Below, in pieces: positions 16,572 to 63,434 of a stretch of DNA of 64,000 nucleotides (position 1 is the stretch's first letter; each line of letters opens with the position of its first letter). Below the pieces are notes generated by a model. It was not told where the DNA came from. It ran no database searches and saw only the letters and a list, made by a program, of their open reading frames with translations. The DNA lies in NCBI GenBank assembly GCA_903901225.1, contig CAIUQE010000019.1, positions 1,146 to 65,145 of the forward strand, read 5' to 3'. The position numbers and the translations under genes were made by a program. Source of the DNA: Candidatus Omnitrophota bacterium (GTDB taxonomy: Bacteria; Omnitrophota; Gorgyraeia; Zapsychrales; Fredricksoniimonadaceae).

Positions 16572-19500
16572 TTATTCCAGGAATTGCGCGGCGGATACGA
16601 GTGGGGTGAGGGAAGTTATGACCGGGGTCAGCCCTTTGATCTTGCCGGGGGCCATGCGGCTGTCAGCCGGGGCCATGGGGACGGCCTGTCCCGTGGTGTC
16701 CAGTTTCAGCAGGTCAGGATTCATGTCGATACCGCCGGGTGTTGCGGCTTTGTCCGCAGTCGCGGGCATGGCGTGATCGGGGGTCATGTCCACGACTTTT
16801 AATGACAGTTCCTTCTCAAAATAATCCGCGATATCATCAAAGGCTTTTTCGGCCTTTTCTTTGCCTGCAGGAGTGTTTGGGATTATTTTTCTGTCTATGG
16901 CGTGTTCTATAAAAGCGGCGTAGTTTTCCGGGGTCATGCGTAGCTCATACTGTGGCGCGAACACCTGACTGATGAACTGGATCATCGGAATATAGCCGGG
17001 GTGATTTTCTTTCAAATAATCGAACAACGATTTTCCGATCTCGGGCTTGAGGATCGCGCGCCTTTCCTGAAAGTCCTTGTTGGCCAGAAGTTGGAATATC
17101 CCGGAAGTTTGAAGGTCGGCGTTGGTAAATGTATCGGCAGCATTGACCGTGAATGTCTGGACGTCAAGCATGTCGTATGATTCTTTATCAACAGGGATAT
17201 GTTCTACGTTAGGAGCCGCATCAAAATAGGTTCTTTCAATGATCGTCTCGGGTCGATGTAACTGAATAGTTCCTGTTGTGCCGTGGGACATGCGGATCTT
17301 CTTTAATTCATGATCATTCATAAAGAAATTATAAGCGGCTGATCCGGGAGTCAGCATGATGCGGCCGTCTTTGGGAAGATATCTTGAAAGTTCCGCGATC
17401 GCGGCGGCAAAGGCGGGTTCCATGTCGTAGGCCGAACCGGTGTAGATGGGGTCAATATAAGCGCCTTCATCGCCAAGGGCCACATGCGCGGTGGCCAGTT
17501 GCCGTCCGTCCTGGTCATGGACAATGATGAAGCCGGCGGTGGCCTGCAGGGCGGTTTCCAACGGGGTTATTTTCTGGACCCCCTCTGATGAAAAACAACC
17601 CTGCCCCGCCCCTTGTCCGACTGAAGCTTCCTCCAGCAGGTCTTTTCTGAAGGTGATCTTTACGTTCTGTTTTCCATTTTGGCTGGTGATGGCTTTTTCC
17701 AGGGCGTCGATCTCGTTGATCTTGGATTGGAGCTCGCTCAGGGTGTTCTTGTGATCCTGGTTGTTATTGAGTTCAGGCGCGGTGTTGAATTTTATGAAGG
17801 CACCCCGGAATTCTTCAGCATCTTTGGTTGTCTGGATCAGTTTAACGGTATTACTAACGGAAACCGGCATGTCCCTGAATTTAAATTCGCGCCATTCAAG
17901 TTTCTTGACGGAGGCTTCCACCGACTCGACCATGGCGGTCGCTGAATGTCGGATCTGTTCCCTGATCTGGACATCGCTCATGCCCTTGGACAAGGACAAG
18001 TCCAGTTCGATCCCTTCTTCCCAGAGCCGGGGATCCCAGCCATTGCCTACCAGACGCGCAACAGCTTCTTTGTTCCCGAATACCAGATCTTTGAATTCAC
18101 GCTGCATTTCCAAATCAGGGTGTATTTTAAAAGAATCTTTTCCGATCGCCATTAGCTTAGTCCGTAAAGCCCTGCTGGCGGCAGATACACCGGCGTTTTT
18201 GTGGTAAGCATTGAGAAACTCTTTGATCGCATATCTGTATAACGACCAGAGGCGGCTTTCTTCGCCCGATTTTGTAAAAACAGACATGATGGTTCCGATC
18301 TGATTGATGAAAGAAGTGTTCTCAAAGAGAGGCGTAGCATTTTCAGGAACAGGCTCCTGGATCAAACTTTCCAGCAAGGTGGCGCGTAATACGGGCATCT
18401 GGCGCGATATTTGGGCCAATGCCTTGCGCGTGTCGGCGTTCCTTGATGTGGCGGATGTTTGAAGAATTTTATGCCACAGGCGGATCAAGGTCACGCTAGC
18501 GGCTTCAATGGCGCGGCCTGCTTTGAGGTCCGGTGGAAGTTGCGGGTCATGGGGCGAAGCTTTGAAAATTATTTTTGACCGGTCGTTATAACTACCATAG
18601 GCTTCTTTCATCAGCATCACTTCAGTGACAAAGGGAAGGGCGTCCATCTTGTAGCGCAGGTCAATGGATGGGTCATCCAAAAGGGCCAGGGTTTTCTCAC
18701 TAAGCAGTTCGGTTGTTCGATAGCCCCAACTGTGAAGACGATCGATGAATTGCTGCAATCTTTGCATATAGAGCGGCTTGCCGCTTAAAATCGTATCTCG
18801 AACGGCGGATTCAATGCGGCGTTGGTCATTGATATGCTGGTAATTTTTTCTTAAATCGGGTTTATTTCTCTGCGAGGCGGTTTGCAGTAATTCTTTTATC
18901 GGACGCACCTGTTGATCAATGTATATCGCGTAAGTTGCAAGCGTGTGCCCGGCGGCATGCTGGGCAAGGTTTAAAAATATTTTCTGAAAAAGGTTTCTAT
19001 TGTCGTCGTTAACGATCATATAGTTGTTAAGTGCTTTCCCCAGGGTAAGAATGTTCGATGCGATATTGGTGACATTTTTATAAAACTCATCTGCAGGATC
19101 ATCGGTCAGCATTGTTCCCAAGTTTGCAGGCAAAGGGGCTTTAAGGATGTTTTCAATAATAGATCGACGCAGCCCAGGCATTAAGGCGTCAACGGCCTCG
19201 GGTGTTCCCGCGTTAACGGGTTGTGCCAGAATACGGTCGGTAGCGACAAAGACAGCATCAAAAGCGGGGCGCTCGTCCTGAAGTGAACCTTGCATCAGGT
19301 TTGCCAGATACGCAATAGCTCCCACGCTGTGCATGATCTTGAAGCGCATATCAGCCGCTATCGTTTGGTCCATGATGACAGGCATGATGTTGGGGGTTTT
19401 TGGTAAAAGAATTTGACGAAATTTTTTATGTGTGAGTAGTTGTGTGAGATCTTTAATGGGTTGAACATCGCCATCAAGGCAAACTTCCGTGATAAGTTCC

Positions 19501-21665
19501 GGCAGGCCGTTTAACTTATTGATCTCAAGGCCTTTCGTCGCATCAAAAAGATGTTTAATATTATTGGTATCTTCATCCATGCGCGTGAGGAATTCTGGCA
19601 TCGTGTGTGTGGCAGAAAATCGCACCCACTTGTCAAGAATGAGGGGCGTAAACAGACGCGCATCCTCTGGAGAAAAAACACCTGCGTCAACCGCCGCGTC
19701 TGCCAGATCCCAAAGTTTATTTTTTATCCTGGTGAAAAAACGGGGTGGATTGGAGTTGTTCGCCATCAGGGATGTTTTAAGATTTAAGGCAATAGTCAGG
19801 AATCCGGTATAAAACTCCTCCGGCATGGCCGAGGAAATCCCTTGAATGATCCGGAAATAAGACTCCCCCAGCGGATCTAGCGCATCAAGGATGACTTCAA
19901 ATAATTTTTTCAAATTCGCGTCAACAGGGATGGTATGCTTCAGCTGATGCAATTGCCAGGCATCAACTTTGAAAAATAAAGAATTGTGGTCTTGCATCAT
20001 GGCAACAAAAACCTTTACGAATTTCAGCCACAGGCGATCAAAATCCTGGCCAAGGATATTTTTCAGGACAAACAATGATAACTTGGGGTATCGTGACTTA
20101 GGATCATCATAATCTGTGATGTTTTTCTCATTGTACTTAATAAAATCGATCAGAGACCCCTTGCCCGCAAGCCCCATCTTATAAAGGCCCGGCCATAATT
20201 TTTCAAATTCTTTTTGCCGCGATACCTGGTCTGTTCCAAGGTGGTCATACATGTTATTTATGATCTTGAGGGCTTCATAACTTCCATAGGTGTCACCCCC
20301 TTCTTGCCCGCTGACAGTTTTTAACAACAGCACCAATTCTTCTTCATGTACTTGAAGCCACGGTTTATCTAGTTTTAAAAGCAATGGAAAGCCGTGGGTA
20401 GTCAGCACGTAAGTGGTTAGTAAATTAGTGTTAGCGATTTTCTCTGAAAGTGACAAGAAATACGCCGCATCTTTTTGCCCGCTGAATATAGCCGTAACTT
20501 GATCCTTGACATCATTCCATCGGTAATGTTCTTCCGCCATATCGCATGCCGCAAGGAGCATGGGGCGGCCCGTGAGCGCGGCTTTTACTGGAGCGGGGTC
20601 ATTATCTTCCACGAGGGTGAGTCCTGCGGCATCCACGCCACCCGTAAAATATTTTCTTGGCAGGACTTCGCCGGTCGCGGGATCGGGTTCTTCCCGGATC
20701 ATATTGATGACACCCTTGCGGTACGCCGCGATGTATTGCTGGTAGATCTGTTCATTACCATCCTTACCGGGCTGTTCCACGCCTGAGGTCGCGCTTTGGT
20801 CGACGTAGGCTTTCCCCAGAAGGCTCTGCCTGAGATGATCCTTGAACCATTTGGCCAGGATCATGGCGTGGAAGACCTGGCGCAGGAGAGCGAAGTTCTT
20901 GCCGGTGTTGATCTCCGCTTCGATCTTCGGCAGGAGCACCTCGCGCATGGCCGTGGTCGTGAGGTCGCTGGCAGGAGCTGAGGACTCTGCGATGCCCCTC
21001 TGATGAGACATGGCTATGTAATCTTCTTCCAACATTACTTTCAGATGACTTTCCAGGATCACCACCGTGGTGCCGTTGGCGTAAACCCGGGCGCGGTCGG
21101 GCGTGATCCAGATCTTGTGGAAGGTGTCGAGCGGGACATCGGTGGTGCCAAAGCGTTCAGCCAACGTTTTATAAAGGAGGTCCCAGTAAGTCCGGCCCAG
21201 CGCGGTATCCGGGTTCATCAGGGAACTTGTCAGCTGTTTGAGAAGGTAATCCTGCGCCAATAGATCGCGTGCCATGGTTGTCGGGCCGAAAGCCTTGGGT
21301 GTGATCCGGTCAGGCTCAAGGGGTGAGAGGTTGACCCAAAGGTCGCTCTGGGGAACGGTCAAAGCGGTCAGAAAGTATTTGACGAGGTCCTGGGTGGTGT
21401 CTTTTAGAACAGGTTGATCACCGGGTCCTTGCCCGGGATCGACCAGGAAATCGAAATGAAACGGATGGCGCGGGTCGATCTTAAGGCCCTTGAGACAGGC
21501 GGGTTGGAACGCCGGTGACATGGTAACGGGCGCGCCCGGTGGTGGCAGGGGCACGGCCATCTGGGCCAAGGCCGGGCCGGGAAGCACACTGGTTCCCAGA
21601 AAGGCGGCCAATAGGACGCCGCGCAGAACATGAAAGATCCTGTGGGTGCGCAAATAATACATCAT
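16572..21665 (-). CDS. Giant paralog-family protein P1 (1697 aa): signal peptide, conserved N-domain, long unique middle, conserved C-tail
   Basis: Signal peptide ...PALAQ|MAVPLPPPG. N-domain motifs (CLKGLKIDPRHPFHFDFLVD, DLWVNLSP, FGTTDVPLDTFHKIWI, PRKYFTGG) are shared with the ORFs at 27256, 30461 and 60960. C-tail GGIDMNP...GLTPVITSL...AAQFLE. The middle of the gene has lower GC. Confidence 0.8.
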   Translation of the reverse strand: MMYYLRTHRIFHVLRGVLLAAFLGTSVLPGPALAQMAVPLPPPGAPVTMSPAFQPACLKGLKIDPRHPFHFDFLVDPGQGPGDQPVLKDTTQDLVKYFLTALTVPQSDLWVNLSPLEPDRITPKAFGPTTMARDLLAQDYLLKQLTSSLMNPDTALGRTYWDLLYKTLAERFGTTDVPLDTFHKIWITPDRARVYANGTTVVILESHLKVMLEEDYIAMSHQRGIAESSAPASDLTTTAMREVLLPKIEAEINTGKNFALLRQVFHAMILAKWFKDHLRQSLLGKAYVDQSATSGVEQPGKDGNEQIYQQYIAAYRKGVINMIREEPDPATGEVLPRKYFTGGVDAAGLTLVEDNDPAPVKAALTGRPMLLAACDMAEEHYRWNDVKDQVTAIFSGQKDAAYFLSLSEKIANTNLLTTYVLTTHGFPLLLKLDKPWLQVHEEELVLLLKTVSGQEGGDTYGSYEALKIINNMYDHLGTDQVSRQKEFEKLWPGLYKMGLAGKGSLIDFIKYNEKNITDYDDPKSRYPKLSLFVLKNILGQDFDRLWLKFVKVFVAMMQDHNSLFFKVDAWQLHQLKHTIPVDANLKKLFEVILDALDPLGESYFRIIQGISSAMPEEFYTGFLTIALNLKTSLMANNSNPPRFFTRIKNKLWDLADAAVDAGVFSPEDARLFTPLILDKWVRFSATHTMPEFLTRMDEDTNNIKHLFDATKGLEINKLNGLPELITEVCLDGDVQPIKDLTQLLTHKKFRQILLPKTPNIMPVIMDQTIAADMRFKIMHSVGAIAYLANLMQGSLQDERPAFDAVFVATDRILAQPVNAGTPEAVDALMPGLRRSIIENILKAPLPANLGTMLTDDPADEFYKNVTNIASNILTLGKALNNYMIVNDDNRNLFQKIFLNLAQHAAGHTLATYAIYIDQQVRPIKELLQTASQRNKPDLRKNYQHINDQRRIESAVRDTILSGKPLYMQRLQQFIDRLHSWGYRTTELLSEKTLALLDDPSIDLRYKMDALPFVTEVMLMKEAYGSYNDRSKIIFKASPHDPQLPPDLKAGRAIEAASVTLIRLWHKILQTSATSRNADTRKALAQISRQMPVLRATLLESLIQEPVPENATPLFENTSFINQIGTIMSVFTKSGEESRLWSLYRYAIKEFLNAYHKNAGVSAASRALRTKLMAIGKDSFKIHPDLEMQREFKDLVFGNKEAVARLVGNGWDPRLWEEGIELDLSLSKGMSDVQIREQIRHSATAMVESVEASVKKLEWREFKFRDMPVSVSNTVKLIQTTKDAEEFRGAFIKFNTAPELNNNQDHKNTLSELQSKINEIDALEKAITSQNGKQNVKITFRKDLLEEASVGQGAGQGCFSSEGVQKITPLETALQATAGFIIVHDQDGRQLATAHVALGDEGAYIDPIYTGSAYDMEPAFAAAIAELSRYLPKDGRIMLTPGSAAYNFFMNDHELKKIRMSHGTTGTIQLHRPETIIERTYFDAAPNVEHIPVDKESYDMLDVQTFTVNAADTFTNADLQTSGIFQLLANKDFQERRAILKPEIGKSLFDYLKENHPGYIPMIQFISQVFAPQYELRMTPENYAAFIEHAIDRKIIPNTPAGKEKAEKAFDDIADYFEKELSLKVVDMTPDHAMPATADKAATPGGIDMNPDLLKLDTTGQAVPMAPADSRMAPGKIKGLTPVITSLTPLVSAAQFLE

Positions 21666-27255: not shown

Positions 27256-30200
27256 ATGAAATTGGACGTGAAGCGAATTCTACATGGAATTCTTGCGGGC
27301 ATTTTGATCCTGGCATTCATTGTGCCGGATCTGCGGGTCTATGCGCAGGGAGTTATTTCTTTGCCGGAACCGGGCGTTGGATTCGCGCTGAGCCCGGCAT
27401 TTTCACCCGTGCTCCTTAAGGGCATCAAGGTCCGCTTGAACGACCCTTTCCGTTTTGATTTCATCCTGGACAAAGGCGATGGCACGGCCACGGCGGCGCA
27501 GATCAAGGCCGACGCCACCCGCCTGATCAAATACTTTCTCGCCTCCCTGACGATCCCGGAAAGCGACCTCTGGGTCAACCTTTCACCCTATGAAAAAGAC
27601 CGTATCATCCCCGACGCTTTTGGCCAGACGGGGATGGGGCGCGACCTGCTTGTCCTGGATTATCTCCTCAAAAAAACAATGGCCATGCTCCTGCACCCGG
27701 ATGGTGCGGTGGGAAAGAAATTCTGGGAGAAACTCTACGCCCGGGCCTACGAGGTCTACGGGACCACCGACATTCCCATTGACACCTTCAATAAGGTCTG
27801 GATCACCACGGACAGCGCCGAGATCTACGCGCGGTCGAAAGATGAAGGCACGCCGGTCCAGGCCGCCGTGGCTTTCGTGACCGCAACCCATCTGAAGGTC
27901 ATGCTGGAGAGTGATTACGTAGCCCTGTCCCATCAGAGGGACAGGGCGGATTCCTCTGCTCCTGCCGAGGACGTAGCCCTGTCCCGTACAACCCAAGGTG
28001 CTGACGCCATGAGCGTAGGGGAGGACTTTATGTCCTCCCGCCATGATCTCGAAAAGAATGTTCTTCGCGAGATCATCATCCCCGTCCTCGAAAAGGAAGT
28101 GAACGAGGGCCGGGATTTCAGCCAGCTGCGGCAGATCTATACCAGCCTTGTGCTGGCGACATGGTACAAGAAGGAGTTGACGAACGCCCTTGTGACCAGG
28201 GTCTACGCGGACCAGGGCAAGGTGGCCGGGATCACGCACCATGATCCCGGGATGCAGCAAAGAATATGGGACAGCTATGCCGAAACCTTCCGCAAAGGGG
28301 TGTATAACCTGATCCGGGAAGAGGTCGATCCGGCTTCTGGGGAAACCATTCCCCGGAAATATTTCTCCGGCGGGGTGGTCCTGCATGGCGATTATGCAAC
28401 GACACAAGAAAGGCCTTCGGCGGAAGGTCCTGGAGATTACGCGGCAATGACAGTGGACCTGGCGCAGGACACTACAGGGGAAGCAACGACACTCAATGAT
28501 ATCCTTGGCCCTTCCGCTGAACAGGCGGTCATGGCAAAATATTTCAGCCGGGGGAAACTTCCCAGTCATGTCAGGAAATTCTTGTCCGGCAGGAATGAGC
28601 TGGTCCGGGACAATAATACGAAAGAATTTGTCCGACGGTTGATGGATATCATGGAGACCGTTGGGCCCGATGTCGGGAACATGATCATAGACTTCATGCG
28701 GGGAGAGCTCGGCGGGAAATTTCTTCTCAAGGATTTGGTTGACCCGGGAGTTCTGTCGGTGTTGTTTCGCGGGGATAAGGATACGCAGGCGTTGCTGGAG
28801 ATGGCTGTGGAGGAGAATGACCCGCGTTACATTGGTTCAGCGCTGGCGGATTTTTTTAAGAAAGAGTTTGATCAGGAAGATGACTTTCAGACTGTCACCA
28901 GGGCGGCGCTCCTGTTGCGTTGCCTTTATGGTTTTCCCCAGGAACGGGTCCCGTTGGTATACCTTACGGCCCTTGAAACTTCCGGGATCCTTGAGCTGTT
29001 CCGGTATGTTCACCGTAATCCGGCATTAAAAGGACAGTATTCATTTCTTACTCCGGGGAATCCGATTGTTACGGCGATCCTGGAGAATAACGGGCCGGAG
29101 CTTGTGCGTTTGATCAATGAGATCCCCTGCCCGCCGGCAAAAAAAGCGGGGCTGTTGTTGCCGATAAAAAAGATGCTCGCGCACTACGGTTATCCTCTCG
29201 TTGCCATTGACGTCGGGAGCGCCGCGGATAACACGCTGCCGGCGTCTGACCCCCTTCCCATAAACATTTCCCTTCACGGTCAATTGTCCGCGATGGAGGA
29301 CATATTATCGGATACGGGCGCCGACCAGGCGTTGGTTTTGAAAGCAGTATTAAAGATCCTGGAAGATGTTAAGGAAACCCTGTCCCATGATCCGCATATT
29401 TATAAGGAATTGGTTGCCAGCTTCCAGGATGAATTGGTCAAAGCCCGAAGCAGTTACCTCCAGCAGCTAGCCATACAACACAAGGATAATGAGGATGCCC
29501 TTTTCGTTGCCGTGACGCAGGCAGAAACAGCCATGTTGCTGGGCTTTGATGAGACCGACATCGTTATTTTGAAAGCGTTCCATTTCTTGAAAAGGAATAA
29601 AACGAATCCGACCATGGAAAGGATCATCAAACACCTCAAAGAGGCGTCATCTGAGATCGATACAGCGACCCTGGAAAAGATATCTATCTTGAAGGATTTT
29701 TTCACCGGGATGATCGCTCTTGATCTTCAGGAAGAACATGTCATTTATGCCAAAGAGGCCAGGACGCTCAGGGATTTTGATATCGACCAGTTTTACCGGA
29801 ACAACATCGAGCATGGCTTTCAGGACCTGGTGATCGCCATGATGGAAGAAACAGGTGCTGACAAAGAGAGTGTGCAGAATTATTTGACAAGTAAAAAGAT
29901 ATTTCCCAACGGGCAGATGGCATTGCTTAATGTTAATGAGTATCCTGTTTTGAGAATAAATAGCAGCTTTGTCAATGAGAGGCTTTTGAAAATAATGACT
30001 CGGGATGTCAAGGATGCAATCAGGAAGATCCTGGATGGCGTGGCTGATGGCAATCAACATATCCCTTTTATTTATCGAACCACACTGGGTAACCAAAAGA
30101 ATTTTTCCATTTATGTCAGGATCAATGGAGTGATCGGGAACAATGAGTTAAGACATGCGGGGCTGGCTGACATTGAAATTAAAGACTTGTTGAATGCTTT

Positions 30201-30585
30201 GGCTAATAAAGAAAACAGCCTGATCTCGGCATTGAATACACAGGCCAGGTACACATTTCGGTCAGGAGATATAACAAAATTCTCCACCGTTATAAAAAAG
30301 ATCATACCTCTGCCGCAGGTTCAAGAAAATGTAATAAATCTCATTAAAACATCCCTGCATAACAGGGAGGTTGTTATCGTTGCCTTTGGAGCAAGGGCCA
30401 AGTTCAAAATGCGATCAGACACCAACTCAATGTTGCACGACTTTGAGCAGCATTTGAATAATGTTTCCACAGGTACTATTGAGCCTCTTCCTGTTTATGC
30501 CGATCAGGCCATGTCTCTTGAGAAAGATCTCGGCGGTATTGACCTTGATCCCGCCGCTGCTCAAAGGCATCAAGGTTTATCGTAA
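27256..30585 (+). CDS. Giant paralog-family protein P2 (about 1110 aa from ATG 27256), C-tail truncated at fusion junction
   Basis: RBS aaggcggag precedes ATG 27256. Signal peptide ...RVYAQ|GVISLPEPG. N-domain LLKGIKVRLNDPFRFDFILDKGDG...DLWVNLSPYEKDRI...PRKYFSGG. Ends GGIDLDPAAAQRHQGLS*, where the tail motif GGIDL-P runs into nucleotides encoding the next paralog's N-domain. The track ORF starts at 27055 inside comEC. Confidence 0.75.
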   Translation: MKLDVKRILHGILAGILILAFIVPDLRVYAQGVISLPEPGVGFALSPAFSPVLLKGIKVRLNDPFRFDFILDKGDGTATAAQIKADATRLIKYFLASLTIPESDLWVNLSPYEKDRIIPDAFGQTGMGRDLLVLDYLLKKTMAMLLHPDGAVGKKFWEKLYARAYEVYGTTDIPIDTFNKVWITTDSAEIYARSKDEGTPVQAAVAFVTATHLKVMLESDYVALSHQRDRADSSAPAEDVALSRTTQGADAMSVGEDFMSSRHDLEKNVLREIIIPVLEKEVNEGRDFSQLRQIYTSLVLATWYKKELTNALVTRVYADQGKVAGITHHDPGMQQRIWDSYAETFRKGVYNLIREEVDPASGETIPRKYFSGGVVLHGDYATTQERPSAEGPGDYAAMTVDLAQDTTGEATTLNDILGPSAEQAVMAKYFSRGKLPSHVRKFLSGRNELVRDNNTKEFVRRLMDIMETVGPDVGNMIIDFMRGELGGKFLLKDLVDPGVLSVLFRGDKDTQALLEMAVEENDPRYIGSALADFFKKEFDQEDDFQTVTRAALLLRCLYGFPQERVPLVYLTALETSGILELFRYVHRNPALKGQYSFLTPGNPIVTAILENNGPELVRLINEIPCPPAKKAGLLLPIKKMLAHYGYPLVAIDVGSAADNTLPASDPLPINISLHGQLSAMEDILSDTGADQALVLKAVLKILEDVKETLSHDPHIYKELVASFQDELVKARSSYLQQLAIQHKDNEDALFVAVTQAETAMLLGFDETDIVILKAFHFLKRNKTNPTMERIIKHLKEASSEIDTATLEKISILKDFFTGMIALDLQEEHVIYAKEARTLRDFDIDQFYRNNIEHGFQDLVIAMMEETGADKESVQNYLTSKKIFPNGQMALLNVNEYPVLRINSSFVNERLLKIMTRDVKDAIRKILDGVADGNQHIPFIYRTTLGNQKNFSIYVRINGVIGNNELRHAGLADIEIKDLLNALANKENSLISALNTQARYTFRSGDITKFSTVIKKIIPLPQVQENVINLIKTSLHNREVVIVAFGARAKFKMRSDTNSMLHDFEQHLNNVSTGTIEPLPVYADQAMSLEKDLGGIDLDPAAAQRHQGLS

Positions 30586-33500
30586 TGACCCGTTCCGGTT
30601 TGATTTCATCCTCGACAAAGGTGATGGCAAGGCCGTGGAGGCGCAGACAAAAACGGATGCCACCCGGTTGATCAAATATTTCCTTGCGTCGCTGACGGTT
30701 CCCGAGAAAGACCTGTGGGTCAACCTCTCGCCCTATGAAAAAGACCGCATCGTGCCCGAAGCCTTCGGGAAGACCGAGATGGGCCGTGATCTTCTCGCGC
30801 AGGATTACATCCTCAAGCAAATAACAGCATCGCTCATTTACCCCGATGAAAAGACCGGCAAGGAATTCTGGGCCAAAGTTTACGCCGAAGCACAGCGTCG
30901 TTACGGCACAACGGACATCCCGGTCGACACCTTCAACAAGGTCTGGATCATCCCCGAAAAAGCCACCGTCTACGAACACAAAGACGCCGTATATGTGGTT
31001 GAGAGCCGATTGAAAGTCATGTTGGAAACGGATTATATTGCGATGACGCGGGCGGACACAAGGTCCGCCCCTACAACGCAAGGTGTTGACTTCGTGAGCG
31101 TAGGGGAGGACCTTGTGTCCTCCCGCCATGAGCTCGCCAAGAATGTTCTGCGCGAGATCATCATCCCCGCCCTTGAAAAAGAAGTCAACGAAGGCCAAAA
31201 CTTCGCCACGCTGCGCCAGGTCTACAATTCCCTGATTCTAGCCACCTGGTACAAGCGCAAGGTCAAGGCCGGCATCCTTGGCCAGGCGTATGTCGACAAA
31301 AAGAAGACGGGCGGCATCGACATCAAGGACAAGAACGAAAAGGAAAAGATCTGGGCCCAGTACGTCGAGGCGTTCAGGAGGGGGGCGTATAACCTTATCA
31401 GGGAAGAATACGACTCGACGACCAGATCCACTACTCCGAGAAAATATTTCGCGGGAGGATTGGCCTTGAGTGTGGACGCCGCGATGGATATTACGTCAGA
31501 TGCGGCAAGCGTGGCAAGTATGCCTGGTGATAGATTTGAAATCATCATTTCGTCTCTTTTATCGGTCGACAGGGCGATGTCTGAGAGGGATAGTCACGTG
31601 CCGCCTACTGTTGAAATGGTAAACCGGATAAATAATCTTGTTGAAGCGCTTGGCAGTCCAGACGGGCTGGTGCGTGCGCATGCGGCTAAAGAGCTTCTTA
31701 AGATGGATGAAAAGGGAGTGAGGCAGTCGTTATTTGAAAATGGTTACTGGTCTGAAAAAGAGTCAATGTCAGGCAAGTTCAGAGCGTTGATCTTGAAAAA
31801 AGTACCGGCATGGAAGTTGGTGCTGGAGGCGTTCAACACACTGAATGTTTTTGATGGTTATGAAAAGATAGACATGCGTAATAATCCTGCAAGATATCTG
31901 GCCCTGGGCATGGAGGTCATGTTTTGGCCAAAAAGGTATTCATTTTATTCTTGGTGGAATTTTTCAACATATCTTTTAGCGATGAAGGATTATGACCAGT
32001 TTATCGATTATGTGGCTTTTAGTCCGGCCAAAGTGTTCAGCACGGAGTCGATCTTATCAGAAGTCAGAAGCACCCAAAGTTATTCGCAAAAGAAGTTCTT
32101 CCTGGATGTTTTGATCCGCCGGAAAGAGCCGAAAGCAGTTGAACTGTCTTGGGCATGGATCGGAAGAAAGGGGACTGTTAATGATTTTCACAGCGCTTTG
32201 CAGGATTCAATTGAAGGATATTTGAAGGACGCGGACCCAAAATTTGTTTCAGCAGCATTTTTCTCCCGTGAGGCCAGGAAAGGTCCTGGCAAGCTGGCGA
32301 TAGATTATTTGAATATTTTCCCGACGGCTTCGGCGCTTAAAGATGATGTGAGCATCATGTCGACATCCAGCTGCCCTTTCAACTGCAGGATGTGCGTTGC
32401 CAAGAAAATCCGCAGGGAGCGCAACCCTGATGTCCCTAAAGCAGAATTGTTCAGGCGGATCGATCAGGTCAGGGGCGCCTCGAGGATCCGGTTCGTTGGA
32501 CCCGGTGAAACGACAGCTTATGGAAAACAGGATTTATCGGAACCTGGATTTTCCAGGGACTTTATTGATGTGCTCAAGTATGCGTCCGAAGCTGCTGATG
32601 AGATCTATGTTGTGACCAACGGCCTTTTAATCCCCGCCGACATGGATCAAGCCAGAAGTCTGCTGGGAAATCTTCCCAATAACATTGTTTGGATCCTTTC
32701 AGTTGATGAGCAACACGCGGCAGAAATGGCAAGAGTTCAGGACGGCAAGAAACTTACAGATCTGGTGATGGTGTTCGAAGGATTGCATAATGAGGATCAT
32801 ATTAAGGCAGGATATTTTGTGGCGGCCACCTTTTCCGACCAATCGAAAGTTACAAGACAGTTTGGATTGAGGGATGCCGAGAAAGAGCACCGGGTTACAG
32901 CTTTTCCGATCATAGAACAAGGTGTCGCCGCAGAAGCGATGAAGGGTGAAGTTTCGTACAGGGACCCTGGCCATTACAATGATCACTCAAAGGAGGAGGG
33001 CAGGACAGACCTGTACATTGATATGGATGGCTTCGTTGTGGGTTCAAACCATGTCGCTTTCATGACTTCCGGGGAAAGAAAGACTATTCGCACGTTCAAT
33101 ATTTTTGGGAATGTTCAGGAGCAGCCCTTATCCGATTTTATGCTTATAAAATACAAGACAAGGGCGATATGGAACGACTATGGCAGTGAAAAAGAATTTT
33201 TTGAATGCTGTAAATATCTTCTCAAGGCGATCGCGTTGTATTTAGATGGTAATGAAAAAGAACTGCAAGGACAATTGACCATCATAAGGGCCATGCCAAT
33301 GAATTTGAGAAAGAAGGTTGTCGAAAAGTTACATGGGAATTTTGAATGGATAGATCTGAGGGAACGTGTATTACTTGGTATTTGGTTTAGCCGCTATTTA
33401 CCGGATTGGTGGGAGCTTATCCTAAAGAAAGACAAGGTCCATTACTTTGGCAACTTGACGCAGCTTTTTTCTTCCAAAGGTACTCAGACGGGAGATAATG

Positions 33501-37816: not shown

Positions 37817-37832
37817 AAAGGGATGGTCCTTC

Positions 37833-44747: not shown

Positions 44748-46841
44748 ATGCGCGCGTTTTTGCTGAAAGTCCTGATGGCGGCGCTGGGCGTGGTCCTTTT
44801 GTCCTGCCGTCCTTCCTTATCCCAGCCTTTGGATATCCACACACTGGCTTCGGGCATCGGCGCCGCGGCTGGCGGTCCCGGAGGTATTTCTTTGTCACGA
44901 AAGCCGGCCATGCCCGTTGAGCTGACGGATCCTCTCCGTCAGGAGATGAGCCTGAAGATCGCCGCGGGGCTGGTGTCGCTTGCCGACGCGGCAACGCATG
45001 TGGCGCCGAGCCATGTCGGCCATCCCGGTTTTCACGACGCGGCGTTCGTGTATGACAAGGCCGTGGACGCGCTCGTCTTGCGCGCCGCCGGCGCGGACCA
45101 TGAAGCGCGCGCCGTCCTTGATTATTTCGCGCAGCGCCTGCGCATCCCCCTGGGTGAGGTCAAAAAGAACGCGGATGCCAACGGCATTTACGGGATGCTG
45201 AAACTGGTCCCGTCCATTGACGATCCTCGCGGCGTCGGGCTTGTCAATGCCGTGGATTGCCGTTCGACGGAGGTTGAGGGGCGCGGCCAGGTCGAGTACT
45301 GGACAACGCCGGGGCCCGTGGCGTTCATGGTCATGGCGTTGCTGAAAGTGGACCGCAAGAAATATCTGCCGGAGGCTCTGACCTTGGGGCGTGCCCTGCG
45401 GCTGATGCAGCGGGCTGACGGCGCTGTCACGGACGGCGACCGGGGCGCGGGGAACGTGTGGACGGAACCGCACATGGATTCCTATTCGGCGTTCCTGATG
45501 CTTTTTGAAGCGACGGGTGACGGGGCCTGGAAAGAGGCGGCGGACAAGGCGTGGGAGTGGTTCGCGGGCAATGTTTACAAGCCCGGCGACGGCGTGATCC
45601 ACCAGGGGATGCGCCCCGGCGGGCCGACGGCTGTGTTCGCGACCGATGCCTATTCATGGACCATGGCGGGGCGGGGCGGGGAACGGCTGCCGCTCGACGT
45701 GCTGGAGAAATTGACCGACCGGATGCTGCGCAGCACCGTCGCGCGGGTGACGCTGGAACTTCCCGACGGGGATACCCGGACCGTGACCCTGGTGGATTTT
45801 ACCGACGCGCGGGATGAGCGCATCAAGGCTGATCGCGGCGGCTTCCATCCCATGGGGTCCGTCGAGTGGATCGGCGGGGTGATCCTGGCCCTGCAGAAGA
45901 ACGCGGTGCGTTTCTGGAACGAAGGCAGTTTCGCGTCGCAGGAAAAAGCGGGGTATTACAAGGCGCTCGCCGAGTTCTTCAACCGCCAGGCGATGGATAC
46001 CTTCTACGCGCTTGACGGCGTTAAAGGCCTGGTGTCGTTCTACGCGACCTCCCAGTGGCTGGCGACGGGGCATGGCTGGAAAACGCCGTATTTTTACGTG
46101 AAGGACCCCGCGGGCAAGCCGTCGGTCAAGGGCGGCAGCACCATTGGCGCCTGGGTCGTCCTGCCGCTGTTGCGCGATGACCCTTTCAAGCTGGATGATG
46201 ATTACGGCCGGGTGTATGACGCCATCCCCCTGGATGAACCGGCTACCCGTAAAGCAGAGGCGTATATCGCGGATATCGTCCAGGCGCGGACGTTCACGGA
46301 ACCTGTCCCGACGGAGATGGCATCGGACGTGGGCGATATCCCCGAGATGTGGCGTTACAACGTGCAGATGTTCAACGCGTTCAACGCGGGCAATTATTAC
46401 GCGGCGATCCTCTGGGCCGAGAAGGTCGTGGGCAACAGCGAATGGCGCCGGCTCGCCGTCGACCAGCAGCGCCGCAAGGCGCGTGACGTGAAGGGCCTTG
46501 TGGACTACCCCTGGGGCACGCCCGTGGCCGAGGTGAAGGAAAAGCAAAGGACCATCCAGAAATACCCGCTGCTTAATGAAATGGGCGCGGCCATGTGGGG
46601 GCTCGCGGTATCGCAGTACAGGCTGGGTAATTTGAGCGAGGCGAAGAGCTGGGTCAAGACCATCATCGCAACGGTCCCTTATCACCAGATCTTCGCGCCG
46701 TCAGGGCCGGGTTACTGGAACGCGCTGGTGTCCTGGGAGACGAATCCGGGCGGCAGTGCCCTTGATGCCGCCATGGGCGAGATCTACCGCGAGGTCCTGC
46801 GCGACATGGGCAGCGCGTCCGCCATGCCGCCGTCTTTTTAA
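44748..46841 (+). CDS. Secreted/lipoprotein of unknown function (697 aa)
   Basis: RBS ggggggagg. Lipobox-like VVLLSC. No recognised catalytic motif. Possibly an alpha-helical toroid-type fold. Confidence 0.45.
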   Translation: MRAFLLKVLMAALGVVLLSCRPSLSQPLDIHTLASGIGAAAGGPGGISLSRKPAMPVELTDPLRQEMSLKIAAGLVSLADAATHVAPSHVGHPGFHDAAFVYDKAVDALVLRAAGADHEARAVLDYFAQRLRIPLGEVKKNADANGIYGMLKLVPSIDDPRGVGLVNAVDCRSTEVEGRGQVEYWTTPGPVAFMVMALLKVDRKKYLPEALTLGRALRLMQRADGAVTDGDRGAGNVWTEPHMDSYSAFLMLFEATGDGAWKEAADKAWEWFAGNVYKPGDGVIHQGMRPGGPTAVFATDAYSWTMAGRGGERLPLDVLEKLTDRMLRSTVARVTLELPDGDTRTVTLVDFTDARDERIKADRGGFHPMGSVEWIGGVILALQKNAVRFWNEGSFASQEKAGYYKALAEFFNRQAMDTFYALDGVKGLVSFYATSQWLATGHGWKTPYFYVKDPAGKPSVKGGSTIGAWVVLPLLRDDPFKLDDDYGRVYDAIPLDEPATRKAEAYIADIVQARTFTEPVPTEMASDVGDIPEMWRYNVQMFNAFNAGNYYAAILWAEKVVGNSEWRRLAVDQQRRKARDVKGLVDYPWGTPVAEVKEKQRTIQKYPLLNEMGAAMWGLAVSQYRLGNLSEAKSWVKTIIATVPYHQIFAPSGPGYWNALVSWETNPGGSALDAAMGEIYREVLRDMGSASAMPPSF

Positions 46842-60959: not shown

Positions 60960-63434
60960 ATGGTGAAGAAATTCGTTAAAAGATCGATCGCGTTATTGAC
61001 GCTTGTGACCTTCATGGCCATGAGCGTGCCGTCGTCTTATGCCCAGAGTGTTGTTCTGCCCAAACCCGGGACCATGGTGGCCCTGAGTGAAAGCTTCACG
61101 CCGCCGCTCTTAAAAGGCATTAAAGTTTATCCGGACAATCCATTCCGTCTTGATTTCATCCTTGATAAGGGCAATTCCAGCGATCCCGCTGATAAGTTAA
61201 AGGACGAGTCTTCCCGCCTGATCAAGTATTTCCTCGCGTCGGTCACGGTCCCTGAAAAAGATCTCTGGGTCAATCTCAGCCCTTATGAAAAAGACCGCAT
61301 TGTGCCGGAGGCGTTTGGCCAGACCGAGATGGGGCGTGACCTTTTGGCGCAGGATTATCTTTTGAAGCAGATCACAGCGTCGGTGATTTATCCCGAAGGC
61401 GAAGTCGGCAAGAAATTCTGGGCCAAGGTTTACGCCGAGGCGCAGAGCCGTTATGGCACAACCGATATCCCGGTCGACACCTTCAACAAGGTCTGGATCG
61501 TCCCGGAGAAGGCGGTCGTCTACGAGAACAAGGATGCCGCCTTTGTAGTTGAAAGCAAACTCAAGGTAATGCTGGAGTCAGATTATGTAGCCGCCACGCA
61601 AAATGAGGAGATGGTGCGTAGGGGCGGGTCTGTGACCCGCCCACATGAGCAAGATTCGCAAGAATTCGCCAAACCGATCCTGCGCGAAGTCGTCATTCCC
61701 ATTCTTGAGAAAGAGGTCAACGAAAGCCGGAATTTCGCCCAACTGCGGCAGGTCTATAATTCCCTCATTCTCGCCGTTTGGTTCAAGGACAAGGTCAAAG
61801 AAAGTATTTTCGGCAAGGCCTATGTCGACCGCGACAAGATCGCGGGGGTTGCTATCAACGATAAGGCGGAGAAGGAGAAGATCTGGGCGCGGTATGTGGA
61901 GTCGTTCAAGAAGGGTGTATATAACTATATCAAGGAAGAGAATGACCCCGGTACGCAAGATGTCATCCCGCGTAAATATTTCTCCGGCGGATTTAATATG
62001 AGGCTCGATCATGCGATGGTTGTGACCCATGACGCCGGGATGATCGCAGGGTTAAGGTCAGCTTTTAAGGTGATGGTTTTGTCGGTGGCGTTAACCATTG
62101 CAGGTGGTCAGACGCCTTTGGTCAATATGCCAGTAAAAATCCCGCCGGTTATCGCAGGTTCAGTAACAGATCGTTTGTTTAAATGGGTCGGTCATCAGTC
62201 ATGGATCACTTTTCAAATTTTTTCTATTGAAGGATGGAACGAGTACCTTATGTCAATTCGGCGACCTTTGAATACTGTAGGGGAAGCATCTTTTAATACT
62301 GGTACTGGATTGCAAATAATTCGTCTACCAATGCAGCCTAGAGAGGGAGGAGTTATAATACGTCCTCTTATTCATGAAATATCACATGCGATCATTAATC
62401 GAGAACATTTTCTAGGAAATCGAACATTTTTACTGCAAAAAGTCGAGGCTTTGGAAAAGGCGGTATTGGATAACGGGACACAGGAAGACATAAAGGCTTT
62501 TTACAAGATGTTTATGTTCTATAAATATCAATATAATTCACTATCACAATGGATCGTGGGTTATAAAAATGGTGAGATCGATGTTGATGAGTTATTGTCT
62601 CAGGTTAAGATCGTTAATCGTCAGGGAAGTGGATGGCGCGATGATTCTTATTTGAAGTCAGCGAAGATCGGGTTTGAAATGTTTTTGGAGCGAGGTAAGA
62701 TCCAATTGGGTGAGAAAGTCGTTTCGACAAGTACCTCGAATATTCCCTCTGGGCATCTCAGCGAGGATCGGGATTGGTGGGAAAAGATGAAGTCTGATCA
62801 GAAGTTGCAAGATTATATTGAGTCTTATTCTTGTCCGAACAGTGAGGCTTCCAATGAATTATTCGTTTATTTTGTTACGGCGTATACCAAGTGGCAGTAT
62901 TTCTATTATTTTGGTTCGACCCCTCAACCTCTTTCTGGCGCTCAAGAGGTGCATAAAAGTTTATCTGGTTTATCGCATAGTGGGAAGCTTGAGAAGACTG
63001 ATGATTCTAAGAAGCCAGAGCAGCATGAGAAGCCAGTAATGGCTGAAAAGTCTGGAGAAGCAGGACCTGCAATATTTGCTGTGGTGGAGCAATTCATAAT
63101 AGAAGCAGGGCTTCCGCCGGATATTGTTAGTTATGATAATTCAATGTCTTTCGCGTTGGCTCCTGAAAATATGTCTATACCTGATGAAAAGCCGTTACTG
63201 GGTGAGGGCAAACCTGTCAAGGCTGATAACGGTGGTATCGACCTAACCCGCGACAGGATGGGCCTTCAGGTTCACAGCGGCGGGCAAGGCGTTCAATTCA
63301 ACTTTGATCCTGCCATGATCCAGCAGTTACAGAATGCTCCCGGCCTGGCACCGGTGATCATCGACATCCAGCCGATGACTACCACTGTGCCGATGTTCCT
63401 GGGGCTTAAGGATGATGCGCCGGCGCAAGGCTGA
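60960..63434 (+). CDS. Giant paralog-family protein P4 (824 aa): signal peptide, conserved N-domain, low-GC HExxH-containing payload, conserved C-tail
   Basis: RBS ggcgagggg. Signal peptide ...PSSYAQ|SVVLPKPG. N-domain PPLLKGIKVYPDNPFRLDFILDKG...DLWVNLSPYEKDRIV...PRKYFSGG. HEISH at 62373-87. C-tail GGIDLTRD...FDPAMIQQLQNAPGLAPVIIDI. Confidence 0.8.
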   Translation: MVKKFVKRSIALLTLVTFMAMSVPSSYAQSVVLPKPGTMVALSESFTPPLLKGIKVYPDNPFRLDFILDKGNSSDPADKLKDESSRLIKYFLASVTVPEKDLWVNLSPYEKDRIVPEAFGQTEMGRDLLAQDYLLKQITASVIYPEGEVGKKFWAKVYAEAQSRYGTTDIPVDTFNKVWIVPEKAVVYENKDAAFVVESKLKVMLESDYVAATQNEEMVRRGGSVTRPHEQDSQEFAKPILREVVIPILEKEVNESRNFAQLRQVYNSLILAVWFKDKVKESIFGKAYVDRDKIAGVAINDKAEKEKIWARYVESFKKGVYNYIKEENDPGTQDVIPRKYFSGGFNMRLDHAMVVTHDAGMIAGLRSAFKVMVLSVALTIAGGQTPLVNMPVKIPPVIAGSVTDRLFKWVGHQSWITFQIFSIEGWNEYLMSIRRPLNTVGEASFNTGTGLQIIRLPMQPREGGVIIRPLIHEISHAIINREHFLGNRTFLLQKVEALEKAVLDNGTQEDIKAFYKMFMFYKYQYNSLSQWIVGYKNGEIDVDELLSQVKIVNRQGSGWRDDSYLKSAKIGFEMFLERGKIQLGEKVVSTSTSNIPSGHLSEDRDWWEKMKSDQKLQDYIESYSCPNSEASNELFVYFVTAYTKWQYFYYFGSTPQPLSGAQEVHKSLSGLSHSGKLEKTDDSKKPEQHEKPVMAEKSGEAGPAIFAVVEQFIIEAGLPPDIVSYDNSMSFALAPENMSIPDEKPLLGEGKPVKADNGGIDLTRDRMGLQVHSGGQGVQFNFDPAMIQQLQNAPGLAPVIIDIQPMTTTVPMFLGLKDDAPAQG

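Follow-up and report, generated by a model that had tools for sequence, protein, structure and literature searches.

MARTX toxins carry constant N- and C-terminal regions around exchangeable central effectors, which are released by inter-domain cleavage. They have glycine-rich repeats and a cysteine protease domain, leave the cell by type I secretion without a Sec signal, and act against eukaryotic cells. The C-terminal domain (CTD) of T9SS cargo is a beta-sandwich of 80-100 aa (TIGR04183/TIGR04131), and these proteins share no N-domain. Exported proteins that bear cofactors normally take the Tat route and not Sec. Omnitrophota are ultra-small bacteria, widespread and uncultured, and are believed to live by predation or parasitism. 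Such a predatory or parasitic lifestyle has been proposed for the phylum from published work (PMC10066038; PMC12583861), and very long Omnitrophota proteins have been reported, including a "multi-enzyme metabolic" class (bioRxiv 10.64898/2026.06.07.730766) and the giants of West-Roberts et al. (bioRxiv 10.1101/2023.11.21.568195). Chlamydia, of the PVC group, secretes housekeeping sugar enzymes, namely glycogen enzymes and PGM (PMC4829429, PMC9251005).

The stretch of DNA analysed here (the window) is 64 kb of an Omnitrophota genome. It includes four paralogous genes, P1-P4, at the coordinates reported in an earlier note, which the ORF positions bear out. Jointly the four make up ~22% of the window DNA, and they are members of a very large, undescribed, Omnitrophota-specific protein family. 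The frame common to the family is a Sec-type signal peptide (..A-x-A↓Q), an N-domain of ~310 aa ending in PRKYFSGG, a middle, and a tail of ~60 aa that begins at GGIDL.

P1 (16572-21665, minus strand) is a complete member of 1697 aa. Its signal peptide (residues 1-34, ..PALA↓Q; 21564-21665), read heuristically from the sequence, precedes an N-domain delimited by alignment (residues 35-343, ending PRKYFTGG; 20637-21563; GC3 0.70), an orphan middle, or payload, of 1300 aa and low GC (16737-20636; GC3 0.53), and a tail recognised by alignment and by the tail profile (GGIDMNP...GLTPVI...FLE; 16575-16736). A border motif, DHAM (16767-16778), lies 14 residues ahead of the tail. The other three genes are on the plus strand. 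P4 (60960-63434), also complete, encodes 824 aa with a signal peptide identified by inspection (60960-61043), an N-domain (61044-61991), a middle (61992-63230) and a tail (63231-63431) that contains DPAM (63306-63317). In the P4 middle, the border motif DHAM (62007-62018) is followed by a TM-like hydrophobic stretch, and the HExxH motif noticed earlier is present as HEISH (62373-62387), with no family match in Pfam or NCBIfam. P2 (27256-30585; 1109 aa, from translation and alignment) consists of a signal peptide, again by inspection (27256-27345), an N-domain (27346-28374) and a middle (28375-30531), in which DQAM (30502-30513) stands before a mere stub of the tail, GGIDLDP (30532-30552). From the DNA and the translations, this stub is the deletion junction with P3. 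P3 (30551-33697, start approximate) has an N-domain without the signal peptide and the first ~20 residues (30551-31459), a middle (31460-33517) and a complete tail (33518-33694) with an internal DPAM (33593-33604). Its middle has two copies of the border motif, DAAM (31475-31486) and DRAM (31568-31579), and the radical-SAM cluster motif CPFNCRMC (CxxxCxxC; 32372-32395).

Beyond GGIDLDP, the P2 reading frame leaves that of the tail and terminates at 30585. Homology of P3 to the other N-domains begins with PPLLKGIKV (30551), in a frame shifted by one base relative to P2, and a deletion has therefore fused the first part of the P2 tail to about residue 20 of the P3 N-domain. The two genes are thus joined by a frame-shifted deletion that also cost P3 its signal peptide. 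Three ENA assemblies supplied the loci, and the identical P2 product recurs on at least 16 contigs, so the junction is genuine and cannot be put down to an error in one assembly. In one other assembly P3 is split further, into 307 and 743 aa, and the gene is probably decaying. The signal peptide and tail had both been attributed to all four proteins. All four do have the N-domain, but P3 lacks the signal peptide, and a tail of 54-67 aa is found in P1, P3 and P4, whereas P2 keeps only seven residues of it.

The N-domains of P1-P4 are ~310-343 aa long, share 43-60% pairwise identity and have more than 90 invariant columns. Every N-domain motif quoted in the earlier note occurs in the alignment of the four paralogs, and low complexity does not account for the conservation, as the N-domain sequence is not low-complexity. 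The tails of P1, P3 and P4 follow the consensus GGID(L/M)..DPAM..G(L/V)(T/A)PVI..FL. BLASTP of the four proteins aligns N-domains and tails alone, so the payloads are mutually unrelated, as had been claimed. Their low GC also holds: GC3 is 0.40-0.55 in the middles, compared with 0.66-0.71 in the N-domains, 0.68-0.75 in the complete tails and 0.70-0.82 in housekeeping genes. None of the four middles has a firm Pfam match, and three of the four window proteins have orphan middles. P3 matches Pfam Radical_SAM (PF04055) below threshold (E 9e-5, 23.1 bits; gathering cut-off 29.5) and has weak NCBIfam rSAM matches. For the P1 middle, Pfam and NCBIfam scans gave no match, and a search of 5.8 billion proteins found only P1's own 99%-identical copy. 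The word "giant" suits relatives that exceed 3,700 aa, but not the window members, which are 824-1697 aa long.

A profile search of protein clusters with the N-domain returned at least 1,619 clusters, the listed matches at E 1e-144 or lower, and the source names of the matches listed are almost all Omnitrophota/Omnitrophica. Over 580 matches came from a scan of reference genomes; the top 80 of these loci are in MAGs labelled Omnitrophota/Omnitrophica, except for some "uncultured Planctomycetales" and one Elulimicrobium. The tail profile matched 5,456 clusters (50% identity), with the tail invariably C-terminal. A top tail match (P0163, with 23 stretches) was set aside as artefactual, being a tandem repeat in translation. 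Among 86 complete ORFs from 80 related loci, 77 have both modules, seven have the N-domain alone and two the tail alone. In all 77 two-module genes the N-domain and tail occupy the extreme ends, with 0-48 residues between the end of the tail and the stop. The N-domain is also carried by members above 3.7 kaa, and 21 of 81 loci have 2-4 family copies. Neither module belongs to a characterised family that we could identify, in agreement with the earlier note: Pfam and NCBIfam scans of the four proteins were empty for both, profile searches of PDB sequences with both gave only noise, and the frame of N-domain plus tail was not found described in a literature search.

Features of a signal peptide were detected in 72-74 of the 77 relatives by a heuristic of hydropathy, charge and motif. 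The h-region is ~12-15 residues long with positive charge N-terminal to it, and A-x-A↓Q is conserved in ~90% of members. By inspection, P1, P2 and P4 look like Sec-exported substrates of signal peptidase I, and P3 has no signal. A TM-like segment stands at the start of 16 of 121 middles, including that of P4, and 82 of the 121 have no TM-like segment anywhere. As so few middles start in this way, most should share the N-domain's side of the membrane.

The architecture deduced from the window, a constant entry module, a variable central cargo and a constant C-terminal tag, survived all tests, and the swapping itself was seen in relatives. In 111 pairs with N-domains 80-95% identical, mean tail identity is ~74% and no pair has related middles. 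The middle is therefore exchanged wholesale between otherwise near-identical frames. Middle lengths of 103-3,270 aa were recorded, with a range for the family of ~100 aa to over 3,300 aa, and most of this sequence is unmatched. Middle GC3 is below that of the N-domain in 62 of 77 genes (p about 1e-10) and below that of the tail in 58 of 77 (p about 1e-8). Rapid diversification, suggested earlier on the strength of copy number and of clustering, holds only in part, since the window paralogs are old: their N-domains share 64-81% DNA identity, which also rules out recent gene conversion among them. The region right after the N-domain was considered as a duplicated piece of the tail and rejected (one weak match in 128 middles), as was carriage of the family by phage, with only three loci among 2.9 million viral contigs.

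A Pfam census of relatives recognised cytoplasm-type enzymes and repeats in the middles. Enzymes that are consecutive in a pathway sometimes occur on one chain, for example PGK with enolase and PGI with PGM. Other modules include NDK, parts of PPDK, starch synthase, B12/radical SAM proteins, methyltransferases, HEAT and ankyrin, and there are occasional toxin-like modules (DRAT ADP-ribosyltransferase and PP2C). The enolase module shares 44% identity with a housekeeping enolase and retains the SHRSGETED, KxNQIG and GDD motifs, and on this basis the enolase-type cargo looks catalytically intact. How enzymes of cytoplasmic type come to follow an export signal is not accounted for by what is known of bacterial secretion.

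The border motif D-x-A-(M/Q) is a new observation here. In its fuller form, [G/P/A-rich]-D-x-A-(M/Q)-(L/V), it serves as a linker sequence between middle modules in many members. Enrichment of D-x-A-(M/Q) is ~12-fold over the 60 aa that open the middle and 7.5-fold over its closing 45 aa. The motif is ~40-fold enriched in the largest members: four that exceed 3,700 aa have 2.7-3.5 per 1000 aa, compared with 0.07 in neighbouring non-family ORFs. None of 23 occurrences falls inside a Pfam envelope (p = 0.004), and copies are placed exactly between PGK and enolase and between PGI and PGM. Some large members (L054, L071) have no D-x-A-M. We also considered the M of D-x-A-M as a captured or internal start codon. 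This was ruled out because D-x-A-Q is equally enriched; moreover, the motif lies 6-25 residues upstream of native enzyme starts, and the DNA upstream of it has no clear ribosome-binding pattern, although purines tend to be common in the middle codon.

The earlier note had suggested looking beside homologs for dedicated secretion or processing genes. No secretion, protease or immunity gene adjoining the family genes is conserved in the 81 loci, where the sole recurrent neighbour cluster is of generic response-regulator proteins. The window itself includes the diderm envelope genes SecA, Lnt, BamD and LptE.

The reading that we favour, with a probability of roughly 40%, is that the family comprises modular carrier polyproteins, exported by Sec, whose site of action is outside the producer's cytoplasm, probably in prey or host cells. 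To the architecture and the swapping, which were observed directly, it would add export, processing and a destination. The proteins would be exported unfolded via Sec, and the N-domain, the tail or both would direct a further step, which could be sorting, crossing of the outer membrane or entry into another cell. The D-x-A-M linkers would be junctions at which the modules may be cut apart. The likeliest site of action would be inside prey or host cells, in their cytoplasm, because the radical-SAM, PGK, NDK and PPDK modules depend on Fe-S clusters or nucleotides, which a periplasm is unable to provide. If the constant ends are indeed a delivery device, it would be a new one. Several points count against this reading. 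Members without a middle, such as P0005, make little sense with a pure sorting tag; it is not evident why a predator would deliver glycolytic enzymes; and D-x-A-M is absent from the large members named above, as are conserved neighbour genes from the loci. Most of the middle sequence also lacks any function that could be recognised.

The alternative that survives best, although we regard it as doubtful, agrees on export and differs on the role of the constant parts. The N-domain and tail would be halves of a split domain that fold together, or dock between molecules into chains, to form an envelope or surface protein, for example a building block of the outer veil. The middle would occupy a permissive loop that connects PRKYFSGG to GGIDL, as an insert that is displayed or just carried. 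The placement of the modules at the extreme ends of all 77 complete genes suits such a protein, and so does P0005, in which a linker of only 14 residues joins N-domain and tail with no middle. In the P0005 model the tail has a pLDDT of 70-86 and strand 378-382 is scored as paired, we infer with the N-domain. In addition, N-domain and tail identities co-vary (Spearman 0.48), whereas the middles do not. Given this co-variation and the fairly confident tail of P0005 with its paired strand, the two ends of the frame may simply fold together. However, shared ancestry can account for the co-variation, and in the AlphaFold model of P4 the tail reaches a pLDDT of only 46-70. The N-domain of that full-length model stands at 85-97 and is mixed alpha/beta, its helices being long; most of the middle is below 50, and the middle is uninterpretable. 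A split domain also leaves unexplained why cargo that depends on Fe-S clusters or nucleotides should be outside the cytoplasm.

It is quite unlikely, in our view, that the frame tethers enzymes in the producer's own periplasm-like compartment or at its surface, for example to process metabolites of lysed prey. The heuristically identified Sec signal, the diderm envelope and the succession of pathway steps on one chain would fit such extracytoplasmic metabolism. However, PGK, NDK and PPDK require a nucleotide pool, the frame has no lipobox, TM helix or sortase-type anchoring signal, and to our knowledge radical-SAM and B12 modules cannot gain their cofactors once exported via Sec. On the favourable side, a 2026 preprint reports "multi-enzyme metabolic" giant proteins with signal peptides in the phylum (bioRxiv 10.64898/2026.06.07.730766).

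We consider it very unlikely that the proteins are toxins or effectors of a known type for interbacterial competition, whether Rhs/CDI/MafB-like or MARTX-like with central effectors. The trafficking-like constant ends, the variable content, the many paralogs per genome (the multi-copy loci above), the occasional DRAT and PP2C modules and the HExxH of P4 are consistent with this, and MARTX cargo is central too. However, signatures of YD, RHS, DUF1020, RTX and CPD are absent from P1-P4 (Pfam and NCBIfam), entry is by Sec and not by T1SS, T5SS or T6SS, and the recognisable cargo consists of housekeeping enzymes, HEAT and ankyrin instead of nucleases, deaminases or pore-formers. The resemblance to polymorphic toxins or surface-variation systems proposed in the earlier note is a poor fit, because of this housekeeping-type and repeat cargo and because small adjacent immunity genes are not conserved in the 81 loci. 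Equally improbable is that there is no export and the N-terminal hydrophobic segment is an uncleaved anchor or non-functional, which would make the proteins cytoplasmic or membrane-tethered multi-enzyme scaffolds: the cytoplasmic-type, apparently intact cargo and the TM-like start of 16 of 121 middles, which would return the chain to the cytoplasm, agree with this, but the short h-region, N-side positive charge and A-x-A↓Q in ~90% of members are the pattern of a cleaved signal peptide, and no TM-like segment occurs in 82 of 121 middles.

The carrier-polyprotein reading could be extended to the whole phylum, which we think unlikely. The frame would then be a new delivery device that ships intact cytoplasmic enzymes, including those of consecutive glycolytic steps; after cutting at D-x-A-M, the modules would run or rewire the metabolism of prey or host, and the phylum's "multi-enzyme" giants would be much larger versions of this device. 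The family amounts to thousands of clusters, with several copies per locus. Its two profile-searchable modules and the candidate processing motif provide a handle on the cargo repertoire of any Omnitrophota genome, and the modules are also a basis for designing direct experiments.

Autotransporters, the T9SS CTD, Rhs/YD and MafB had been named as families to which the N-domain and tail might prove to belong, and none of them matched. Polymorphic toxins (Rhs/YD, CdiA, MafB) likewise combine a conserved trafficking part with a variable part, occur as many paralogs and exchange by recombination. In these toxins, however, the variable part is C-terminal with an immunity gene after it, and characteristic repeats or domains define them. 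The cassette family showed none of these features: P1-P4 have no Rhs/YD repeats (Pfam/NCBIfam) and no DUF1020 domain of MafB (Pfam), and the 81 loci have no conserved neighbouring immunity gene. Pfam gave no match to the beta-barrel of classical T5SS autotransporters (PF03797, >=250 aa), and C-terminal conservation spans only ~60 aa; nor was there a Pfam match to the 12-stranded barrel of inverse autotransporters (intimin/invasin; PF11924), and the N-domain is modelled as mixed alpha/beta. For LPXTG/PEP-CTERM-type sorting signals, NCBIfam gave no match and the tail alignment has no TM helix or basic cluster. T9SS cargo is similar in that proteins with nothing else in common have an N-terminal Sec signal and a conserved C-terminal module, but NCBIfam and Pfam scans of P1-P4 gave no match to TIGR04183/TIGR04131 (Por_Secre_tail) in the tail, which is 54-67 aa long.

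MARTX toxins and the cassette family are both mosaics with constant ends and an exchangeable middle. The glycine-rich A/B/C repeats, cysteine protease domain and T1SS signal of MARTX are absent from P1-P4 (Pfam/NCBIfam), and the cassette family has a Sec-type signal instead. Chlamydia provides a likeness within the PVC group, as housekeeping carbohydrate enzymes (glycogen synthase, PGM) are exported to act outside its own cytoplasm (PMC4829429, PMC9251005), but each is a lone enzyme bearing a type III secretion signal, and there is no common frame, polyprotein or Sec route.

The long Omnitrophota proteins come from the same phylum, have signal peptides as the cassette family does, and are likewise unexplained in function. 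Their classes are set by length (>=10 kaa or >=30 kaa) and Pfam content, and they often have many TM helices, a C39 peptidase, dockerin or SecA. By contrast, the window proteins are 0.8-1.7 kaa long without C39 peptidase, dockerin or SecA domains, and P1-P4 have none of the Pfams of the Archaeovorin/Dockerin-type giants (Dockerin, TSP3, C39 peptidase, C-terminal TM + SecA-like; >=30 kaa). The conserved N-domain, C-terminal tail and linker motif are absent from published descriptions of the long proteins, a comparison made by description only. Radical SAM, HEAT, HATPase_c, PPDK_N, AAA_5 and phosphoglucomutase are Pfams common to both, and NUDIX and HAD, known from the long proteins, also occur among the matches of the cassette-family N-domain profile. 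The N-domain and tail modules and the candidate processing motif could be used to test whether the phylum's unexplained giant proteins follow the same plan. In four relatives (L041, L022, L010 and L018), which are shorter than 10 kaa, but not in the four window proteins, many metabolic Pfams tile one chain, as they do in the "multi-enzyme metabolic" proteins.

The four family members in the window each combine a constant N-terminal domain and, where intact, a constant C-terminal tail (together, the frame) with a variable middle between them. ORF listing and translation confirm the paralogs of the earlier note, at 16572-21665 on the minus strand (P1, 1697 aa) and, on the plus strand, at 27256-30585 (P2, 1109 aa), about 30551 to 33697 (P3) and 60960-63434 (P4, 824 aa). 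Together they occupy ~14 kb of the 64 kb. Over the N-domains (~310-343 aa), identity is 43-60% and >90 columns are invariant, and every motif that had been quoted for them is present; as the N-domains are ordinary globular sequence, low complexity does not account for the conservation. Their DNA is 64-81% identical, indicating that the paralogs are not recent copies. BLASTP among the four aligned only N-domains and tails, so the middles are unrelated to one another. The low GC content described for the middles is also borne out: their GC3 is 0.40-0.55, versus 0.66-0.71 in the N-domains, 0.68-0.75 in complete tails and 0.70-0.82 in housekeeping genes, to which the values of N-domains and tails are close.

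Both a tail and a signal peptide had been assigned to all four proteins. A tail of 54-67 aa ends P1, P3 and P4, but P2 retains just the first seven residues (GGIDLDP, 30532-30552) and then runs out of frame until its stop (30585). Homology of P3 to the N-domain begins with PPLLKGIKV (30551), in a frame displaced by one base from that of P2; P3 thus has neither a signal peptide nor the first ~20 residues of the domain. This arrangement indicates a deletion between two tandem members, which joined the start of the P2 tail to residue ~20 of the P3 N-domain. The junction is real, because at least 16 contigs encode the identical P2 product and the locus sequences come from three ENA assemblies; the deletion is fixed in the population. 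One assembly has P3 split again (307 + 743 aa), and P3 is probably decaying. A CCC-GCC at the junction could in principle permit a +1 slip yielding a P2-P3 fusion of ~2,150 aa, but nothing supports such a slip.

Tail-like fragments were detected within long middles, at middle residues ~1002-1030 of the member at 7565-11617 of locus L010 (DRAQLSNPPGGIDKNEVNI..DSAM) and at residues ~654-675 of the related protein P0271 (GGIDLARDLMGLQV..DAAM). These internal fragments suggest that members with several modules originate when family genes fuse end to end, like P2 and P3. Complete tails also occur without an N-domain in short ORFs of 73-144 aa (L088 5795-6423; P0125, P0134 and P0138), one of which is on 13 contigs, including assemblies from the sampling project of the window. 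These ORFs look like relics of deleted members, or may be genuine stand-alone tail proteins.

Genes neighboring the paralogs have housekeeping and envelope functions (LeuRS, ComEC, BamD, MurJ, UvrC, YchF, SecA, Lnt and LptE, and ThiG/ThiH-like genes assigned by eye). No dedicated secretion or processing operon, a prospect raised in the earlier note, was found near P1-P4 in the window. Immediately 3′ of P4 is a gene for a BrnT-type toxin, which overlaps a small partner ORF (63482-63959; L001 12523-13000). Two long ORFs of 585 and 697 aa (37743-39500 and 44748-46841), among housekeeping genes, had no Pfam match. A 515-aa ORF (3318-4865, minus strand) has the CxxxCxxC motif GCPFACGFC and, judged by eye, resembles a B12-binding radical SAM enzyme encoded on its own; the same pair of domains recurs as family cargo.

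Stop-to-stop ORFs in the window and 80 loci with relatives were searched with local HMMs of the N-domain and tail. Of the complete ORFs, 77 combine a full N-domain with a tail, seven have only the N-domain (P2 and at least one clear frameshift, L076, are among them) and two have only the tail. Placement is strict: the upstream stop and the start of the N-domain are always 27-135 residues apart, and 0-48 residues separate the end of the tail from the stop codon. Both frame borders carry a double glycine (PRKYFSGG and GGIDL). Middles of complete genes span 103-3,270 aa (median 924), five more ORFs of >3,700 aa extend past the fetched DNA, and 21 of the 81 loci have two to four members within about 21 kb. 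By a heuristic that requires net positive charge, a hydrophobic core of ~12 residues and then small-x-small, typically (Y/F)AQ, a cleaved Sec signal precedes the N-domain in 72-74 of the 77 genes. As only 16 of 121 middles, that of P4 included, start with a TM-like segment (82 have none at all), in most members the middle should share its side of the membrane with the N-domain. The reading as a constant entry module, variable central cargo and constant C-terminal tag is essentially right. In one member (L031, 285-4254, reverse-complement strand), near-identical (V/G)TLRATSL(Q/H) sequences are inserted in frame in three different N-domain loops, a pattern resembling a short insertion element in several copies; the middle of this member has two copies of a methyltransferase-like module, with xNAM/xTAM ahead of each.

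The family is large. A profile of the four N-domains matched at least 1,619 clusters at 90% identity; the matches listed have E values of 1e-144 or lower and are almost all named as Omnitrophota/Omnitrophica hypothetical proteins. Scanning one genome per species gave >580 matches, and the best 80 of these loci are from MAGs labelled Omnitrophota/Omnitrophica, except for some MAGs bearing the label "uncultured Planctomycetales" and one that bears the label Elulimicrobium. The latter ("Candidatus Elulimicrobium sp.", DYOU01 contigs, L072 and L077) encodes typical members; NCBI taxonomy puts Elulimicrobium in the Patescibacteria group, and either this MAG is mislabelled or the family extends beyond Omnitrophota. 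The window itself is part of a metagenome scaffold in ENA. A profile of 25 tails searched against 1.84 billion representative proteins gave 5,456 matches at E ≤1e-3 and 1,910 at ≤1e-10, and all genuine matches among the 150 listed are at the C-terminal end. Only three loci were found in 2.9 million viral contigs (IMG/VR, L085-L087), on contigs that may be real phages or misclassified cellular DNA. Exceptions by MAG label aside, the frame is restricted to one phylum.

Neither module matched a described family, as the earlier note had supposed. Pfam (2025) and NCBIfam (2026) scans gave no match for N-domain or tail, and profile searches against all PDB sequences gave none below E 0.03. We modelled P0005, a natural member without a middle, from a 112-sequence alignment (pLDDT 78, pTM 0.74). 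The predicted N-domain is mixed alpha/beta and combines two beta-hairpins with several long helices; Foldseek with this model found nothing below E 0.26 in the PDB or 0.11 in BFVD. The two preprints on giant proteins from Omnitrophota, an overview of the phylum and a paper on its one enrichment culture do not mention the frame. The finding is of a real, large family for which we found no description and whose two modules have no recognised fold.

Middles are exchanged wholesale. We compared N-domain, middle and tail separately among 131 complete members, counting middles as related if ≥100 aa aligned at E ≤1e-5. None of the 111 pairs with 80-95% identical N-domains had related middles, and their tails average 74% identity; related middles make up ≤2.3% of pairs in every band of N-domain identity. 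P4 and P0005 have a 76% identical frame, yet P0005 lacks any middle. Base composition agrees with a mosaic history: middle GC3 is below that of the N-domain in 62 of 77 genes (Wilcoxon p about 2e-10) and below that of the tail in 58 of 77 (p about 9e-9). In several low-GC genomes (L012, L033, L049 and L075) the direction is opposite to that in the window, with N-domain and tail GC3 far higher than in the local background (e.g., 0.66 and 0.78 versus 0.45) and middle GC3 matching it. Frame and middle often differ in compositional history. Alternatively, N-domain and tail may be parts of a single domain with an insertion site, either folding onto each other or connecting molecules head-to-tail; this is supported by the members without a middle, by the co-variation of N-domain and tail identities (Spearman 0.48) and by the P0005 model, in which the tail is predicted fairly confidently and includes a paired strand.

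Most middle length has no Pfam match, and the 1,300-aa middle of P1 found only itself among 5.8 billion proteins, within the sensitivity limits of a word-seeded search. The domains recognised in a Pfam census of relatives are of cytoplasmic type. They include radical SAM with B12-binding, starch synthase, PEP-utilisers/PPDK, methyltransferases, enolase, phosphoglycerate kinase (PGK), phosphoglucose isomerase (PGI), phosphoglucomutase (PGM), glutamate and alanine dehydrogenases, Maf, PP2C, NDK, DRAT, GH116, glucan synthase, UDPGP, NUDIX and HAD, as well as HATPase_c, response regulator and AAA_5 domains and HEAT and ankyrin repeats. Middles are modular, as single chains carry PGK then enolase (L041), PGI then PGM (L022), a UDPGP-like domain then PGK (L018), or ARMT1-like phosphatase, Maf, NDK and HEAT (L010). 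The L041 enolase keeps its signature motifs and is 44% identical to a housekeeping enolase of the window's organism.

Inspection of the junctions revealed a recurring D-x-A-M motif that is absent from the earlier note. Within the first 60 aa of middles it exceeds compositional expectation ~60-fold. Relative to the middle interior, it is enriched ~12-fold in this stretch and 7.5-fold over the last 45 aa; D-x-A-Q is enriched likewise, and x-A-M without D is not. The tail itself contains the motif (FDPAM). Four members of >3,700 aa have 10-13 copies each (2.7-3.5 per 1000), with G/P/A-rich sequence before and L/V then A/V/G after, versus 17 in 255,267 aa of non-family ORFs from the same loci (0.07 per 1000). 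None of 23 copies falls inside a Pfam domain envelope (12 middles with mapped domains; binomial p = 0.004). The motif sits exactly between PGK and enolase in L041 and between PGI and PGM in L022, ahead of NDK in L010 and at the starts of repeated modules; in P1-P4 it is at borders only. The motif is one of the protein level. A role as start codon was rejected, given that Q replaces M and that the motif lies 6-25 residues ahead of native enzyme N-termini; no clear ribosome-binding pattern was found upstream. In six loci (L042, L060, L083, L008, L039 and L048) a second targeting-like signal follows D-x-A-M directly, in the first ~60 middle residues; twin-arginine-like (MSRRRFLGLG), lipobox-like (LVSAGC) and Sec-like signals were seen, and whole precursor proteins may have been incorporated.

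From the signal-peptide pattern, we infer that the proteins would be exported through Sec. The frame may then serve a step after Sec, since it is constant across unrelated cargo and sits at both termini. Sec moves chains unfolded, so radical-SAM modules cannot receive their Fe-S/B12 cofactors in a periplasm, and PGK, NDK and PPDK require nucleotides; both points would make another cell's cytoplasm the destination of functional cargo, with D-x-A-M linkers as candidate processing sites. We give this combined reading a probability of roughly 40%; its architectural part alone is very probably correct. A destination in another cell accords with the predatory or parasitic way of life that has been proposed for Omnitrophota (PMC10066038, PMC12583861). 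Export of housekeeping sugar enzymes is not absurd, as Chlamydia, which belongs to the PVC group too, secretes its phosphoglucomutase as well as glycogen enzymes (PMC4829429, PMC9251005). The enzymes may alternatively act in the producer's own envelope. The family could also be a conventional polymorphic toxin system, but the cargo types do not suit this and immunity genes are absent. That the hydrophobic N-terminus does not export at all is at odds with the cleavage-site pattern.

The family's design is similar to that of MARTX toxins, which have central exchangeable cargo and inter-domain cleavage, and to that of T9SS cargo, which combines a Sec signal with a C-terminal domain. The family has none of the defining features of either, nor those of autotransporters, Rhs, MafB or sortase-type signals. 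The nearest described proteins are the signal-peptide-bearing, unexplained "multi-enzyme metabolic" giants of Omnitrophota (bioRxiv 10.64898/2026.06.07.730766), which, compared by description, share phylum and cargo types, but for which no frame or linker was reported. The family may be the small-protein end of these multi-enzyme giants, and it pairs unexpected cargo with a candidate processing motif.
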